Shown here: one piece after another, positions 24,473-29,625 of the stretch
How positions within the stretch are numbered: position 1 is the first letter of the stretch
Layout of the letters: each line of letters starts with the position of its first letter
DNA from: an uncultured Anaerolineae bacterium
Lineage (GTDB): Bacteria > Chloroflexota > Anaerolineae > Aggregatilineales > UBA3940
Direction of reading: 5' to 3'
NCBI GenBank assembly: GCA_964637665.1
Contig: CAZWUX010000001.1
Coordinates: 1 to 37,490 of the forward strand
DNA: 37,490 bases
Position numbers and translations under genes: made by a program
The notes under the pieces: model-generated
Seen by the model: the letters and a program-made list of their open reading frames with translations, nothing else
Database searches by the model: none
What the model was told of the DNA's origin: nothing

Positions 24473-25606
24473 TTACAGCTTCATGCGGTAAATGTGATGC
24501 GTCTTGTAGAAGTCCACGCCGAATTTCTTCATCTCGTTGAGGCTTTTCGCGTTGAACTCGGATATCTGGACCACGTCGGCGTGTTTGAAGCGTGGGAAGT
24601 CGGCCAGCGCCCGGTACAACTCGGCGTACATGACCGCCGTCCCGCCCATGCCCTGATATTCCGGCTGGATGCCCATCCCGTTCAGGTTGAGCCAGTCGGA
24701 GGTGCGCAGCGAGCGCAGCAGGTGGAACCACCCGAACGGGAACAATCGCCCTTTCGACCTGCGCAGCCCCTCCGAGATGTCGATGAAGCAGAACAAAAAG
24801 CCGATGATGTCGTCGTCCTTCGTGAGGAAGCGGATCAACTCCGGATCGGTGATGGTCAGCATCTTGTCGGCCAGCGCCTTGATGGCGTCCTCCGGCATCG
24901 GCGGATCGCCCGCGATGTCCGTGAACGATCGGTTGTAGACCTCGACCAGCCGGGGCGCGGCCCACTTCAGCAGCGCGCGCTTCGAGGAGAACATCCGCTC
25001 CTCGAACCCGTAGCGCTGCCTGACCTTATCCGCGATGTCCAGCACCCGCTGGGGGAAGTTCTCCATCATGTACGGCACGCTCAGATAGCCGGAGTAAACG
25101 CGTTCCTCAAGCTCGAAGCCGTAGTCCGTCGTCAGGCGGTTGTAGTATTCATAATTGTAGGGGATGGTCAATGCCGGGCGACGATCGAAGCCCACCGCCA
25201 GCATGCCGATCCCGTCGAACGGCAGGAAACCGAGCGGGCCGCGCAGCAGATCGAGGCCGCGTTCCCGCGCCCACGCGGAAACGGCGTCGAACAGCGCATT
25301 GGCGACGGCAGGATCGTCCACCGCGTCGAACAGAAAGAACCTCGCCTCGCTGCCCCCTTTGTACTCGTTCTCGCGGCGCGGCCACAGCGCGGCGATGCGC
25401 CCCACGTCCCGCCCATCCTCGACGGCGAGGAAAAACGCCGCGTCGTTTTCTCTATAGTAGGGGTTTTTCTCCCTGTCGAGCTGAAACCGCGCGTCGGAGA
25501 TAAAGGGCGGCACCCAGTAGGGCGAATCCTCGTACAGGCTGAGCGGCAGGTTGATGAAGCGGTTGGCCTCGCGGCGGTTGGTCGTGTCGATCTCGTGGAT
25601 ATCCAT
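24473..25606 (-). CDS. YghO-like double-GNAT N-acyltransferase
   Basis: FINLPLSLY..SPYWVPP, DVGRIAA, F.LFDAVDD, LRGPLGF, PYNYEYY, GRLFPFGW, GIQPEYQGMG. Confidence 0.82.
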   Translation of the reverse strand: MDIHEIDTTNRREANRFINLPLSLYEDSPYWVPPFISDARFQLDREKNPYYRENDAAFFLAVEDGRDVGRIAALWPRRENEYKGGSEARFFLFDAVDDPAVANALFDAVSAWARERGLDLLRGPLGFLPFDGIGMLAVGFDRRPALTIPYNYEYYNRLTTDYGFELEERVYSGYLSVPYMMENFPQRVLDIADKVRQRYGFEERMFSSKRALLKWAAPRLVEVYNRSFTDIAGDPPMPEDAIKALADKMLTITDPELIRFLTKDDDIIGFLFCFIDISEGLRRSKGRLFPFGWFHLLRSLRTSDWLNLNGMGIQPEYQGMGGTAVMYAELYRALADFPRFKHADVVQISEFNAKSLNEMKKFGVDFYKTHHIYRMKL

Positions 25607-25880: not shown

Positions 25881-26516
25881 TTACGCATCGCGCGAGAACA
25901 TGAGGCCGAAGCCCCGGCGCGTCACGACGTAGTGATCGGCGTCGTAGCGCGCCAGCCGCTTGCGCAGGCGCGAGACGAGCGTGTCGATCATCTGGTCGGT
26001 AATGTGCGCCTCGTCCGGCCAGACGGCCCCGGCGATCTCCTCACGCGTGACGATCTCGTCCTCTCGGCGCACGAGGGTGGCGAGCAGCGCGTACTGGCTG
26101 GGCGAGAGCGGCGGATCGACGAGCTGGCCGTTGACGAACACCTCGGCGCGTGTCTCATCCACCTGCACGCCCTCGAAGCTGAGCGCCCGCAGATCGACCT
26201 GATCCGTCGCCGCCGGGTCGTCGAAGCGGAGGACGACGGACGACGCAAACTGGATCTCGTCGCCGTCGGTCAGCAGCACCTCGCCCTGCACACGCTCGCC
26301 GTTGACGAACGTGCCGTTCGTGCTGCCCTCGTCGGTGACGGTGTACTGCCCGTAGCTGCGGTCGATGCGCGCGTGCAGCCGGGATATGCCCGGCGCGTCG
26401 AGCGTGAGCAGACATTCCGCATCGCGCCCGATGGTGCACGGGCACTTCTCCAGCACGAATCGCTCGCCTTCGTGAGCGCCGCGTATGATGATCAAGGAGG
26501 CTGGCATGGCCGCCAT
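25881..26516 (-). CDS. FHA domain plus OmpR-type winged-helix transcriptional regulator
   Basis: FHA motifs IGRD, ISRLHARI and D..STNGTFVNG; wHTH motifs LSPSQYALL, VTREEIAGAVW, IDTLVSRLRKRL, TRRGFG. Confidence 0.92.
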   Translation of the reverse strand: MAAMPASLIIIRGAHEGERFVLEKCPCTIGRDAECLLTLDAPGISRLHARIDRSYGQYTVTDEGSTNGTFVNGERVQGEVLLTDGDEIQFASSVVLRFDDPAATDQVDLRALSFEGVQVDETRAEVFVNGQLVDPPLSPSQYALLATLVRREDEIVTREEIAGAVWPDEAHITDQMIDTLVSRLRKRLARYDADHYVVTRRGFGLMFSRDA

Positions 26517-26578: not shown

Positions 26579-27109
26579 CTACACGAGCGCCTGCGCGCAG
26601 TGTGCCCGGACCGCGCACGCCCGGCAGATGGATGGGTCTTCGTGCGAGCGCGGAACCTCCGGCGCGGCGGCAGCCCGCCGCATCTCGCCCAGTAGATCGG
26701 TTAGCCCCTGCCGGGGCGCAGGCCCCCACTCCAGAGGCACGTCCCGGTCAGCGTAGCGCAGCAGCGCATAGGGTACGCTGCGATCATAGACCAGTTCGGC
26801 CAGCCTGCAAAGTGCGGCGGCCTGCATCCGCGTGCCCCGCGAGGGGGCTTCCGGCGCGGGGCGGTCGATGACCTGCACGGGGATCATCTGACCCTCCGCC
26901 ACGAGGTGCAGCAGCCCATGCGGCGTTCCTGCCAGCCCCGCTGCCGGGGCGATCAGCGGGCCGCGTGGCACCAGCGCCTCCGCCGCCCGATCGGCGAGGT
27001 CGACGCGGGCAGCAGGGCGTACGCCCTGCCCCAGCCGGTAGCCCGCCACGATGAGCAGCACCCCGCCCACGGCGCACAGCAGCGCGCCTATTTGCAGGAC
27101 GACGGGCAT
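26579..27109 (-). CDS. Membrane-anchored Cas4/Dna2-like protein, C-terminal part; nuclease motifs degenerate
   Basis: N-terminal TM helix; GLAGTPHGLL (cf. GL.GxPD), IPVQVI (cf. IPVEVK), MQAAALC.L.E (cf. QLxxYxxLxE); C-terminal CRACAVRAHC. Confidence 0.7.
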   Translation of the reverse strand: MPVVLQIGALLCAVGGVLLIVAGYRLGQGVRPAARVDLADRAAEALVPRGPLIAPAAGLAGTPHGLLHLVAEGQMIPVQVIDRPAPEAPSRGTRMQAAALCRLAELVYDRSVPYALLRYADRDVPLEWGPAPRQGLTDLLGEMRRAAAAPEVPRSHEDPSICRACAVRAHCAQALV

Positions 27110-27115
27110 CGCACG

Positions 27116-27391
27116 TTAAAAGACGAGCAGGCCGAGCGCCAGCAGCAGCACGGCCAGCCCGATCAACACCCCACCTGCGATCATCAACCGGCGGGCCAGC
27201 CAGCGCCGCCGAACCAGCGTGGCCCGCGCCTCGCGGATCGCGCCGCCGGGCGCGTAGCCCTTCACGTCGGCCAGCCACCACGCCCGGCGGCAGGTCAAAT
27301 ATGCGGCGATCCCCTCGACGGTGATCAGCGCGGGCGGCGCATCCCCGCTGTGGGGGGCGGGGATTTTGCCGGGCGAGGTGGGGCGCTTCAC
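27116..27391 (-). CDS. Small membrane protein carrying the Cas4 N-terminal Cys motif
   Basis: ITVEGIAAYLTCRRAWWL resembles the Cas4 N-terminal YxxCPRxxW motif; C-terminal TM helix; GTG start overlaps the upstream TGA (GTGA). Confidence 0.72.
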   Translation of the reverse strand: MKRPTSPGKIPAPHSGDAPPALITVEGIAAYLTCRRAWWLADVKGYAPGGAIREARATLVRRRWLARRLMIAGGVLIGLAVLLLALGLLVF

Positions 27392-28032
27392 GACTCGCCC
27401 AGGTCCAGCCGCTCCTCCAGACTGAGGAGCGCCGCTTGGAGCCGCTGCTGGCGCAGGCTGTTCGTCAGGTCGCCGCGCGTGCGTTCGAGCACGCCGCGCA
27501 GCACGTCGACGCGGCGGCGCAGCCCGTAGGTGATGGCATCCGGGAAGTCGAACGTCATCAGTTCGTTGTAGATGTCCTCCATCCGTTCGAGCAGCAGCTC
27601 GGCCTCGTCGTCATGCTCCTGCCGGATGATGTCGAGGATCGTCCGGCGAATCTCGGTGCCGGCCTCGGCCAGCCCGCTCAGGTAGGTCGCGCCCGGCACG
27701 TCAAGCTCCTCCCGCGTGGGCAGCGCCTCGCCGCGCACCAGCGCGTAGGTGGCAAACGCCTCGACGTACTCTTTAAGCGCGTCCTGTGTGTAGCCGGAGT
27801 GATACAGGTCGGGGAAATTTGCCACGCCCTCTGACAGGTTGCGCGCCGCCGCGCGCGCCGTCTCCAGCCCGGCCTGCGCCTGCTCCCAGTTCTCACGGTG
27901 GACGGCCTTGATCGTGTTCGCGCACTGGCGGATCAGCTCCCGCGAGCGCGCCAGCGCGTCGTCACGGGCGGCGTTCATCGCCTCTAGTTCCTCGCGTATC
28001 GCGTCCGCAATGGTGCTCAGGTTGTCGGTCAT
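27388..28032 (-). CDS. Translin/TRAX (C3PO)-family protein
   Basis: RD.AL..SRELIRQCA.TIKAVHR, QDALKEYVEA, YLSGLAEAGTEIRR, LRRRVDVLRGVLERTRGD; all-helical 214 aa. Confidence 0.88.
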   Translation of the reverse strand: MTDNLSTIADAIREELEAMNAARDDALARSRELIRQCANTIKAVHRENWEQAQAGLETARAAARNLSEGVANFPDLYHSGYTQDALKEYVEAFATYALVRGEALPTREELDVPGATYLSGLAEAGTEIRRTILDIIRQEHDDEAELLLERMEDIYNELMTFDFPDAITYGLRRRVDVLRGVLERTRGDLTNSLRQQRLQAALLSLEERLDLGES

Positions 28033-28337: not shown

Positions 28338-28736
28338 CTAGAACGGGATGTCCTCCTCGTCGGTGGCGTAGTCCATGCCGGACCCCATGTCCTGGTCCGG
28401 CCCGCCCGTTCCACCGCGCGGCAGGAACTTGACCTCACGCGCGGTCAGTTCGAGCGTGGCGCGCGCCTCGCCGTCCTGCCCGGTGTAGGCCGACGCCTCG
28501 ACCTCGCCGATCACCATGACGGGGCTGCCCTTACGGAGATACTGGTTGGTCGTCTCCGCGAGGCGGCGCCAGCAGGTCACGCGGAACCACCAGGTTTTCT
28601 CGCCCTGGCTGCCGTCGGCGCTCGTCCAGCGCCGGTTGACGGCGACGGAAAAGCTCGTGACCGGAGTTCCGTCGGCAGTGAAGCGCATTTCAGGGTCCCT
28701 GCCGAGGTTCCCTACGATGATACATTGCTGAAACAC
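28338..28736 (-). CDS. ssb: Single-stranded DNA-binding protein
   Basis: IVGNLGRDPEMRFT.DG, FSVAVNR, YLRKGS.V, acidic tail DEEDIPF; GTG start at 28736 behind GAAAGGAG. Confidence 0.96.
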   Translation of the reverse strand: MFQQCIIVGNLGRDPEMRFTADGTPVTSFSVAVNRRWTSADGSQGEKTWWFRVTCWRRLAETTNQYLRKGSPVMVIGEVEASAYTGQDGEARATLELTAREVKFLPRGGTGGPDQDMGSGMDYATDEEDIPF

Positions 28737-28913
28737 GGCTGCTCCTTTCGTTGGGATGCCGGTTGCCGTTGGGGGTGTCCCGGTTCCCTTTTCAGCCAGC
28801 CCCACCCTGCGTGGATGCGGGGCTGGCGCTGGGTTCAATTGGCGGTTCTGAACCCGGCCCGGTGGCCGGGTTGAGGCGAAAAACGACCTCTCAAGGCGAG
28901 CGGTCACATCCTG

Positions 28914-28947
28914 ATAATACCACATCCCTGTGACACCTTCTGTCACA
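28914..28947 (-). promoter_or_regulatory. Putative ssb promoter with overlapping palindromic operator
   Basis: Extended -10 TG-G-TATTAT on the minus strand; TGTGACA-N5-TGTCACA at 28929-28947 covers the -35 region. Confidence 0.5.
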
Positions 28948-29053
28948 ACACGCTGCGGCGAGTGCTGCCGCTTAGAGTACAGCAAAGCAGGGTGCCATGC
29001 AACCGGCGTAAGGACGATCTGCGGGGCTGGTGGGCAGGGTGTCATAGTCAGGC

Positions 29054-29069
29054 TGTGATATACGTCACT
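29054..29069. promoter_or_regulatory. CRP/FNR-family-like box
   Basis: TGTGA-TATACG-TCACT, 9/10 match to TGTGA-N6-TCACA. Confidence 0.4.
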
Positions 29070-29193
29070 TGCCGGGGAAGCGCCCATGAACTACGCTTAA
29101 ATTGATATTTAAGATATCTAGTGCCTGATTTTCCGAATTACAGGTGATTTACATCCTGTCGAAAGCCAGCCGGGAGCTAGAACGAGGTAAACT

Positions 29194-29625
29194 ATGCTAG
29201 AAATCACACGCCAGGCCGACTACGCACTGCGCGCGACGATGGAAGTCGCCCGCATGGACTTTGGAGAGCGCACGCCGACCGCTACGATCGCTGAGGCCCA
29301 GAACATCCCCCTCCCCTTCCTCGCCAAGATCGTCTCCCAGCTCGTCGTGCGCGGGATTCTAGAGGCGACGCGCGGCGCGAGCGGCGGTGTCAGCCTCGCC
29401 CGCCCGGCGGATACCATCACGATGCTCGAAGTCGTCGAGGCCATCGACGGCCCGATCACCATCAACCGCTGCACGCGCGACCCATCCGTGTGCGAGTTTT
29501 CGATGACGTGCCCCTTCTGTGAGATCTTCACCGACGCACAGCAGATGCTCGTCAACAAGCTGGCTAACACGACGCTGGGCGATATCGTGAACCGCGTCGA
29601 GGCCATGGAGGCCGCTGCGGCCTGA
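29194..29625 (+). CDS. Rrf2-family transcriptional regulator, Fe-S type
   Basis: DYALRA, FLAKIVSQL, RGASGG..LARPA.TITMLEVVEAIDGP, Cys cluster C-x6-C-x5-C-x2-C. Confidence 0.94.
   Translation: MLEITRQADYALRATMEVARMDFGERTPTATIAEAQNIPLPFLAKIVSQLVVRGILEATRGASGGVSLARPADTITMLEVVEAIDGPITINRCTRDPSVCEFSMTCPFCEIFTDAQQMLVNKLANTTLGDIVNRVEAMEAAAA

Follow-up and report, generated by a model that had tools for sequence, protein, structure and literature searches.

CRISPR-associated Cas4 proteins (PF01930/TIGR00372; structures 4IC1 of SSO0001, 8D3L of a type I-C system and 7MI4 of a Cas4-Cas1 fusion) carry one N-terminal and three C-terminal cysteines. Cas4 homologues that lie outside CRISPR loci, the solo-Cas4 proteins, are reported to form a monophyletic group found in 'many Chloroflexi' (Hudaiberdiev et al. 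2017, PMC5704561), and their roles have been called 'not well understood' (PMC13621843). Here we analyse a Cas4-like gene pair from an uncultured Anaerolineae bacterium: a small and a large gene at positions 26579-27391 (minus strand) of a 37,490-nucleotide (nt) stretch of DNA (assembly GCA_964637665.1, contig CAZWUX010000001.1, positions 1-37,490; hereafter, the window). The pair has the same fold and cysteine set as CRISPR-associated Cas4, and its active split relatives share the motif order G-x3-H, Asp, Glu-x-Lys and Q-x3-Y. It differs in that it (i) consists of two polypeptides with a transmembrane (TM) helix each, (ii) lies away from cas genes, (iii) has its catalytic residues replaced, and (iv) scores below the family cut-offs. 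We propose that the two genes encode a two-chain, membrane-tethered, Fe-S-bearing Cas4-family pseudo-nuclease that would act as a non-catalytic binder or scaffold, a reading to which we assign a probability of roughly 0.65.

The solo-Cas4 family itself is already known in Chloroflexi. The proteins treated in PMC5704561 are, like those of the window family, Cas4 homologues encoded outside CRISPR loci with their Fe-S cysteines kept, and the two are most probably the same clade. The main text of that paper contains no 'split' and a single, unrelated 'membrane'; the split, the anchors and the degenerate sub-clade reported below are not described in that text. The Solo-Cas4 of M. mazei (PMC12501428) also lies outside CRISPR loci and keeps its Fe-S cysteines, and the paper on it does not contain the word 'membrane'. 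Thermoproteus tenax virus 1 has an inactivated Cas4-like protein that is described as having become a nucleocapsid component (cited in PMC5704561). It offers a precedent for a Cas4 fold kept without catalysis in a structural, nucleic-acid-binding role; set beside the window pair by description alone, it differs in being viral, soluble and single-chain. A literature search of titles, abstracts and text passages, with supplements outside its scope, returned no split or membrane-embedded Cas4, no archaeal polytopic form, no TRAX linkage and no degenerate clade.

The small subunit gene (27116..27391, minus strand) has a GTG start and encodes 91 amino acids (aa). Its TAA stop is followed by 6 nt and then by the large subunit gene (26579..27109, minus strand), which has an ATG start and encodes 176 aa. 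Hydropathy places a TM helix at the C-terminus of the small protein (about residues 69-91; 27119..27187, minus strand), with a Kyte-Doolittle 19-residue maximum of 2.75 at residues 73-91 and arginines just before it (R61-R63 and R67-R68). The large protein has its helix at the N-terminus (about residues 2-22; 27044..27106, minus strand), with a maximum of 2.65 at residues 3-21 and with R25, R31 and R35 following. Under the positive-inside rule, a cut through the outer loop of a TM hairpin yields two soluble halves that both stay on the cytoplasmic side; on the strength of that rule, with which the arginine flanks agree, both soluble parts of the pair would be cytoplasmic. The layout is as given in a preliminary description of the window, made from its letters without database searches, which had listed two adjacent open reading frames (ORFs) 6 nt apart, of 91 and 176 aa, each with a terminal TM helix.

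The Cas4 cysteine set is divided between the two chains. The small protein is the counterpart of the Cas4 N-terminal segment, and the first cluster cysteine, C34, sits within its sequence AYLTCRRAWWL (residues 30-40). The large protein, a degenerate PD-(D/E)xK core behind its TM helix, contributes the other three as part of the motif string GTPH64, Q79-V-I81, Q96AAAL100 and C162-x2-C165-x5-C171 (cysteines at 26597..26626, minus strand, with R154 and H156 just upstream). All four, whose retention had been claimed beforehand, are invariant in the alignments of the family and of the degenerate clade, and those of the large chain are found in 123/123 database homologues. A fifth cysteine, C101, stands right after the Tyr position of the Q-motif in 123/123 homologues and is absent from canonical Cas4; R154 and H156 (123/123 each) and S155 (120/123), just before C-x2-C, are likewise features that canonical Cas4 does not have (residues 101 and 154-156, about nt 26642-26809). 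C101, R154 and H156 are also invariant in the degenerate clade.

The active site of the pair is degenerate in both chains. By homologue alignment, the large protein has H64 for the motif-II Asp, Q79-V-I81 for Glu-x-Lys and Q96...L100 for Q-x3-Y (26810..26920, minus strand), and the small protein has A57...R61 in place of the motif-I G-x3-H found in active relatives; the window therefore reads R61, H64, Q79/I81 and L100 at the catalytic positions. Catalytic roles are taken from descriptions of SSO0001 (PMC12501428, PMC13621843), for which the metal ligands are given as His62, Asp99 and Glu113 (PMC12501428). The three replacements named in the preliminary description (GTPH, Q-V-I and QAAAL) are all present, and the motif-I His position in the small protein adds a fourth that it had not listed.

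Homology to Cas4 becomes clear through the relatives of the window proteins; taken alone, the window sequences barely match. A sequence search of the PDB with a profile of 119 family members found the Cas4 structures 8d3l (E 5.1e-7), 7mi4, 4r5q and 4ic1, while the same database returned only chance ClpC matches for the window large protein alone and only chance K-channel matches for a profile of the degenerate clade. Active relatives clear the Cas4 profile cut-off (40.4 bits for the large protein of locus L007, 44.7 bits for P0247). Profile-profile comparison (hhalign) of the degenerate clade with the canonical Cas4 proteins of sister genomes gave 95.2% probability (E 2.7e-8) over the region from the Q-motif to the last cysteine. 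For the small-protein profile, the Cys motif aligns only weakly with its N-terminal counterpart in canonical Cas4 (E 6.7e-4, 27% probability, 22 columns), and the small protein has no Pfam or NCBIfam match.

Structure prediction points in the same direction. AlphaFold2 models the large protein with a predicted local distance difference test score (pLDDT) of 89.1 and a predicted template modelling score (pTM) of 0.74, starting with a helix at residues 3-29 (pLDDT 92-97) that is followed by a low-confidence linker. The best Foldseek matches of this model are the Cas4 structures 7mi5, 8d3l and 4ic1, followed by ACE1, AdnA, Dna2 and MGME1; Cas4 chains occupy ranks 1-5 and 7-8, with template modelling scores (query) of at most 0.62 and E about 3e-4. 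As modelled, the large protein has a RecB-like PD-(D/E)xK fold, and the Cas4-like identity first proposed from the letters is borne out by the profile and structure comparisons alike.

A complex of the two chains was modelled from residues 24-176 of the large protein and 18-68 of the small protein, with one 4Fe-4S cluster included. Three runs gave a score of 0.92, a mark reached by 58/80 solved complexes and by 2/110 mismatched pairs; the best of three controls scored 0.47. Contact agreement was at least 95% and partner pLDDT at least 88 in these runs. In the model, small-chain C34 makes contact with R154, S155 and H156, close to the C-terminal cysteines; the large chain also places residues 161-162, 165-167 and 170-171 in the interface. 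The prediction supports chain complementation and convergence of the cysteines, and so favours the heterodimer that had been suggested for the pair; as the unsplit fold has solved structures, resemblance to them may account for the good score.

The two-chain arrangement is widespread. A scan of one genome per species found a relative in at least 536 genomes; locus statistics here and below refer to the best 80 loci, 79 of which carry Chloroflexota-type names and one of which is titled just 'uncultured bacterium'. A homologue of the small gene lies upstream of the large gene, on the same strand, in 77/80 loci, and the two share an ORF in none (0/80). The gap between them is at most 135 nt in 47 of the 77 loci and exceeds 400 nt in 26. 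In both of the long-gap loci that were read, an unrelated gene fills the space: a HEAT-like ORF in L024 (2827-3459) and a YkuD L,D-transpeptidase in L025 (2701-3462). Given the gaps of more than 400 nt and the unrelated genes between the halves in L024 and L025, the two halves act as independent genes. An N-terminal hydrophobic helix is encoded by 80/80 large genes and a C-terminal one, with 0-12 residues after it, by 77/77 small genes. In a sample of the class, the large-subunit profile matches 241/301 genomes (204/260 of the high-quality ones), mostly once per genome. This is the distribution of a near-core gene, unlike that of a patchy defence gene.

Throughout these loci, the catalytic motifs are kept: G-x-P-D...P-x-E-x-K, Q-x3-Y-C and C-x2-C-x5-C are present in 80/80, and C...G-x3-H in 76/77 small genes. 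With the motif-I His encoded in the small gene, the family would have a composite active site: His from the small chain, Asp plus Glu-x-Lys from the large. In this class-wide family, most members of which are catalytically intact, both the split and the pair of membrane anchors are ancestral. The window clade belongs to it by its small upstream gene, both TM helices and its place in the tree, and what is specific to its lineage is the loss of the active site alone. Alignment of homologues, as proposed in the preliminary description with loss of catalytic residues in view, finds these residues lost in the window clade and mostly intact in the family as a whole; neither the split nor the anchors are peculiar to this locus, a point that the preliminary description had missed.

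The same counts bear on the possibility that an assembly or sequencing error has frameshifted a single gene into two; a local frameshift had been raised in the preliminary description itself. This explanation was rejected: the two-gene layout recurs in 77/80 independent genomes, 26 of them with more than 400 nt between the genes, and the stop, spacer and start are also found in three other genomes of the window's family (G002, G005 and G020). No insertion or deletion was seen at positions 26579-27391, coding regions included, in contigs from four public DNA runs. The 24 runs listed for the sequence include no RNA run. These contigs are short and low-depth, and none bridges the small/large junction under a 31-letter rule, the best of them reaching 27 letters on its short side. 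We regard a frameshift as extremely improbable.

Single-chain relatives occur in Archaea. Ten of the best 150 representatives, with lengths of 266-559 aa, run from an N-terminal Cys segment through at least two hydrophobic segments to the core. Among homologues of at least 325 aa, 75/83 are a single chain with an N-terminal Cys motif, a catalytic core, the C-terminal cysteines and 3, 4 or 8 hydrophobic segments between. Where organism names are given, the single-chain forms come from Archaea (Thermoplasmata, Methanomassiliicoccales, Methanobacteriota and the Methermicoccus shengliensis cluster), with two exceptions that resemble read-through fusions. These archaeal polytopic Cas4 proteins—the P0247 cluster with the 266-aa Methermicoccus shengliensis protein, and Thermoplasmata proteins of about 330 and about 555 aa—comprise the same soluble halves and have the insertion at the same point as the split family, between motif I and motif II, with active-site and Cys motifs kept. 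They differ from the window pair in their single chain, in its 2-8 or more hydrophobic segments and in their intact catalytic site. Extra annotations are carried by some polytopic relatives (P0361, P0366 and P0290): two proteins of about 650 aa have a TRAM domain (PF01938) at the C-terminus, and the membrane part of one relative is annotated as Yip1 (PF04893).

We envisage the following history. In an ancestor, a TM hairpin would have been inserted between motif I and motif II of a Cas4-family domain, and the gene would then have been cut in the outer loop of the hairpin to give two polypeptides whose soluble parts both remained cytoplasmic. The halves would reassemble into a Cas4 fold in which a [4Fe-4S] 'iron staple' is ligated by C34 together with C162, C165 and C171. 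In the window lineage, the assembled protein would no longer cleave DNA by the PD-(D/E)xK mechanism, and may serve as a membrane-tethered, non-catalytic nucleic-acid-binding or scaffold subunit; the likeliest partners would be the products of two co-oriented genes, SSB and a TRAX/C3PO-like nuclease.

The loss of the catalytic residues defines a clade. The four catalytic columns of the large protein read D/E/K/Y in 116/123 database homologues and H/Q/I or V/L in the remaining 7, which are the window protein and relatives 83-94% identical to it. The degenerate pattern is also found in G002, G005 and G020 and in six metagenome loci; the latter came from a profile scan with the degenerate-clade alignment, and a metagenome scan with the single window protein found no relative. 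A quick maximum-likelihood tree unites the degenerate sequences in a single, starred branch (Shimodaira-Hasegawa-like approximate likelihood ratio test, SH-aLRT, 100), a monophyletic clade; the stem of this branch measures 1.31 changes per column, and the median end branch 0.19. The clade groups with active, TRAX-linked sequences of its own order (SH-aLRT 88, unstarred). The same order also contains a fused, TM-less relative of 213-239 aa (L011 and L012, from G036 and G030 of family f8), which sits on a very long branch (1.76), has no TRAX neighbour and carries degenerate motifs of its own, V-L-R-K for E-V-K and Q-I-L-V-H for Q-x3-Y; it may represent a second, independent loss of catalysis.

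Selection within the degenerate clade can be gauged from one pair of loci, L003 and L004, on which the argument from the ratio of nonsynonymous to synonymous change (dN/dS) rests, most other pairs having an unreliable dS above 1. Between these two, dN/dS is 0.154 for the large gene, 0.217 for the small gene and 0.082 for the TRAX-like gene (dS 0.36-0.54); by these values the clade still evolves under purifying selection. Given the former two values and the homologues of both ORFs in hundreds of genomes, the two ORFs are genuine genes and not chance ORFs of GC-rich DNA. Judged from the sequences, the lineage changed rapidly for a time and then came under constraint again, a pattern other than decay.

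Several points weigh against the proposed pseudo-nuclease, and some of them feed alternatives. To begin with, the window large protein misses the cut-offs of both Cas4 families: 11.9 versus 22.7 bits (E 0.24) for Pfam Cas_Cas4 (PF01930), and 18.8 versus 65 bits (E 0.0011) for NCBIfam cas4 (TIGR00372). Next, the split pair was found in 4/24 genomes of the window's family, all four of them degenerate, and is dispensable there; the long stem branch could equally reflect relaxed selection. A functionless remnant on its way to loss would fit this sparse occurrence and long stem, as well as the faster divergence of the pair (amino-acid identity within the clade of 50-56%, versus 70-75% for the TRAX-like gene). 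It is hard to square with reading frames that, as far as the contigs extend, are unbroken in every member seen (7 database proteins, 3 other genomes and 6 metagenome loci), with the above dN/dS values at unsaturated dS, or with the invariance of the cluster cysteines, R154 and H156, and we consider it improbable.

A further set of objections concerns catalysis. That the pair has lost nuclease activity is a motif-based inference, and the M. mazei Solo-Cas4, said to lack the RecB motif, is nonetheless described as cleaving DNA in vitro (PMC12501428); its Cys mutants are described as losing the cluster and retaining activity (PMC12501428). The near-invariant H64 and D82 of the window clade could form a remodelled metal site. 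The pair might accordingly be a still-active nuclease with a non-canonical site, for instance of H64, D82 and E105, an alternative with which the 10/10 conservation of H64 and D82 in the degenerate-clade alignment, the purifying selection on the pair and the reported in vitro activity without a RecB motif are all consistent. Its difficulty is that four catalytic elements, including the Lys and the motif-I His, have been replaced together in the window, and that the candidate residues vary in the wider clade: L097, alone in the clade, keeps the motif-II Asp (D64) without E-x-K, L096 has Asn where the other members have D82, and the Q of the Q-motif is also lost in L093, L094, L097 and L098. We judge this alternative unlikely. 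Of the original 'nuclease-dead' label, then, the replacement of catalytic residues stands, and inactivity is an expectation drawn from motifs, against which the active solo-Cas4 without a RecB motif (PMC12501428) must be set. Lastly, the proposed partnership with the TRAX-like nuclease is drawn from gene order, and among the class loci 23/80 have such a gene, while 59/80 precede nadK, 55 of these with recN beyond it.

Could the pair instead be a CRISPR-adaptation Cas4 that works with a Cas1-Cas2 encoded elsewhere? The database name of its homologues, 'CRISPR-associated protein Cas4', would suggest so. No Cas1 was found in the window's own genome, which is 89% complete, and the neighbours of the pair in the window—SSB, TRAX-like, FHA regulator and GNAT genes—include no cas genes. 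The other weak matches in the window's family are canonical, unsplit Cas4 proteins of 195-209 aa without TM helices, with a Cas1-like ORF alongside in 5/6 of their loci; this Cas4 of the sister genomes is a separate gene, and two of them (G002 and G005) have both it and the degenerate split pair. The split family is, moreover, near-universal in the class and lies by nadK/recN or SSB/TRAX rather than by cas genes, and in the window its catalytic residues are lost. An adaptation role is very improbable, and the earlier view that spacer acquisition was unlikely is upheld by the genome-wide lack of a detected Cas1. The canonical Cas4 and Cas1 genes of the family lie near contig ends (L101 and L103-L106, from G006, G013, G011, G002 and G005; family f1).

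Returning to the proposed non-catalytic subunit, its two genes sit in a same-strand cluster with the order SSB-TRAX-small-large, both in the window and in relatives. The GTG start of the small gene overlaps by 4 nt (GTGA) with the stop of the upstream 214-aa ORF (27388..28032, minus strand), a TRAX/C3PO-like gene to which it is apparently translationally coupled. The TRAX-like protein matches 3zc1 (AfTRAX) in the PDB with E 3.2e-22 over residues 11-190, and 5jr9 with E 7.6e-13. It has no Pfam Translin match up to E 1, and its best NCBIfam score, 257.9 bits, is under the cut-off of 291. Its four metal-ligand residues, E88, E91, E123 and E127, are Glu in 32/32 Chloroflexota sequences, and by sequence the nuclease appears catalytically competent. 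The roles of these ligands, and the presence of the family in Chloroflexi, are described in PMC5100593. The four acidic ligands are common to the window protein and to the archaeal TRAX/C3PO proteins (AfTRAX, 3ZC0/3ZC1; NeC3PO, 5JR9); the differences are that the equivalent of AfC3PO D114 is always Glu in the TRAX-like sequences, and that the window gene is linked to a Cas4-like pair. The literature search found no paper covering both Cas4 and translin.

At the head of the cluster lies the SSB gene (28338..29087, minus strand), which has the same place in relatives. Its Pfam match covers residues 120-222 of the listed ORF, and the true start is probably internal to that ORF. Divergent from it is a gene for an Rrf2-family regulator (29194..29625, plus strand). 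An Rrf2-family gene stands beside SSB in the window, G002, G020 and L097 and not in G005—that is, in 4/5 degenerate loci with enough upstream sequence—and in 0/80 loci of the catalytically intact class family; its coordinates in relatives are 1768-2202 in L109, 311-745 in L110 and 265-698 in L097. By this adjacency, the cluster could be tied to Fe-S or redox regulation. Downstream of the pair come a regulator with an FHA domain and an OmpR-type winged helix (25881..26516, minus strand), similarly placed in L002 and L008, and a GNAT acetyltransferase (24473-25606, minus strand). The FHA regulator and GNAT both follow the pair in G005, GNAT does so in G002 and G020, and the active pair of L008 is followed by the FHA regulator.

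Two contexts alternate among the 80 class loci. Genes seen downstream are those for NAD kinase (in 59 loci), a B-box zinc-finger membrane protein (57) and RecN (55). A TRAX-like gene lies upstream in 23, of which 13 also have DUF3467 and SSB genes, and TRAX and NadK genes occur together in 5. The order small-large-NadK-(B-box zinc-finger membrane protein)-RecN is found in 55-59/80 Anaerolineae loci (for example L024, 4063-4914; L092, 2691-3215; L022, 5558-7288). In the window genome, nadK and the B-box gene are on another contig (C23; L107, 1435-2944), and the pair is not there. The SSB, RecN, NadK and TRAX surroundings of the active majority suggest, by their gene order, a membrane-located housekeeping role in DNA or RNA processing, and not one in CRISPR adaptation.

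A bolder version of the proposal can be put forward, although as a whole we find it doubtful. In this version, the Anaerolineae solo-Cas4 would be an obligate two-chain membrane enzyme with its cluster and active site across the interface, would have originated from or together with archaeal polytopic Cas4, and would represent an undescribed architectural class of PD-(D/E)xK nuclease at the inner membrane face beside SSB, RecN and TRAX; the window lineage would have turned it into an Fe-S-bearing pseudo-nuclease whose retained cluster and DNA-binding fold serve as a redox- or iron-responsive membrane tether, holding the TRAX-like nuclease and SSB-bound nucleic acid and controlled by the lineage-specific divergent Rrf2 regulator.

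If the pseudo-nuclease reading is wrong, the pair is one more diverged solo-Cas4. What the surrounding family offers is broader: one of the largest bacterial solo-Cas4 clades, found in 241/301 class genomes and in at least 536 species-level genomes, is built of two membrane-anchored polypeptides. The ligands of the cluster, and in active members those of the metal, would be divided between the chains, which makes the family a natural split system for probing what the Cas4 iron staple is for: assembly, stability or sensing. The family would also place a Cas4-family nuclease at the membrane, encoded beside DNA-repair genes. The degenerate clade would then, if our reading is true, be a natural separation-of-function variant, whose remaining role must be a non-nucleolytic role of the fold.

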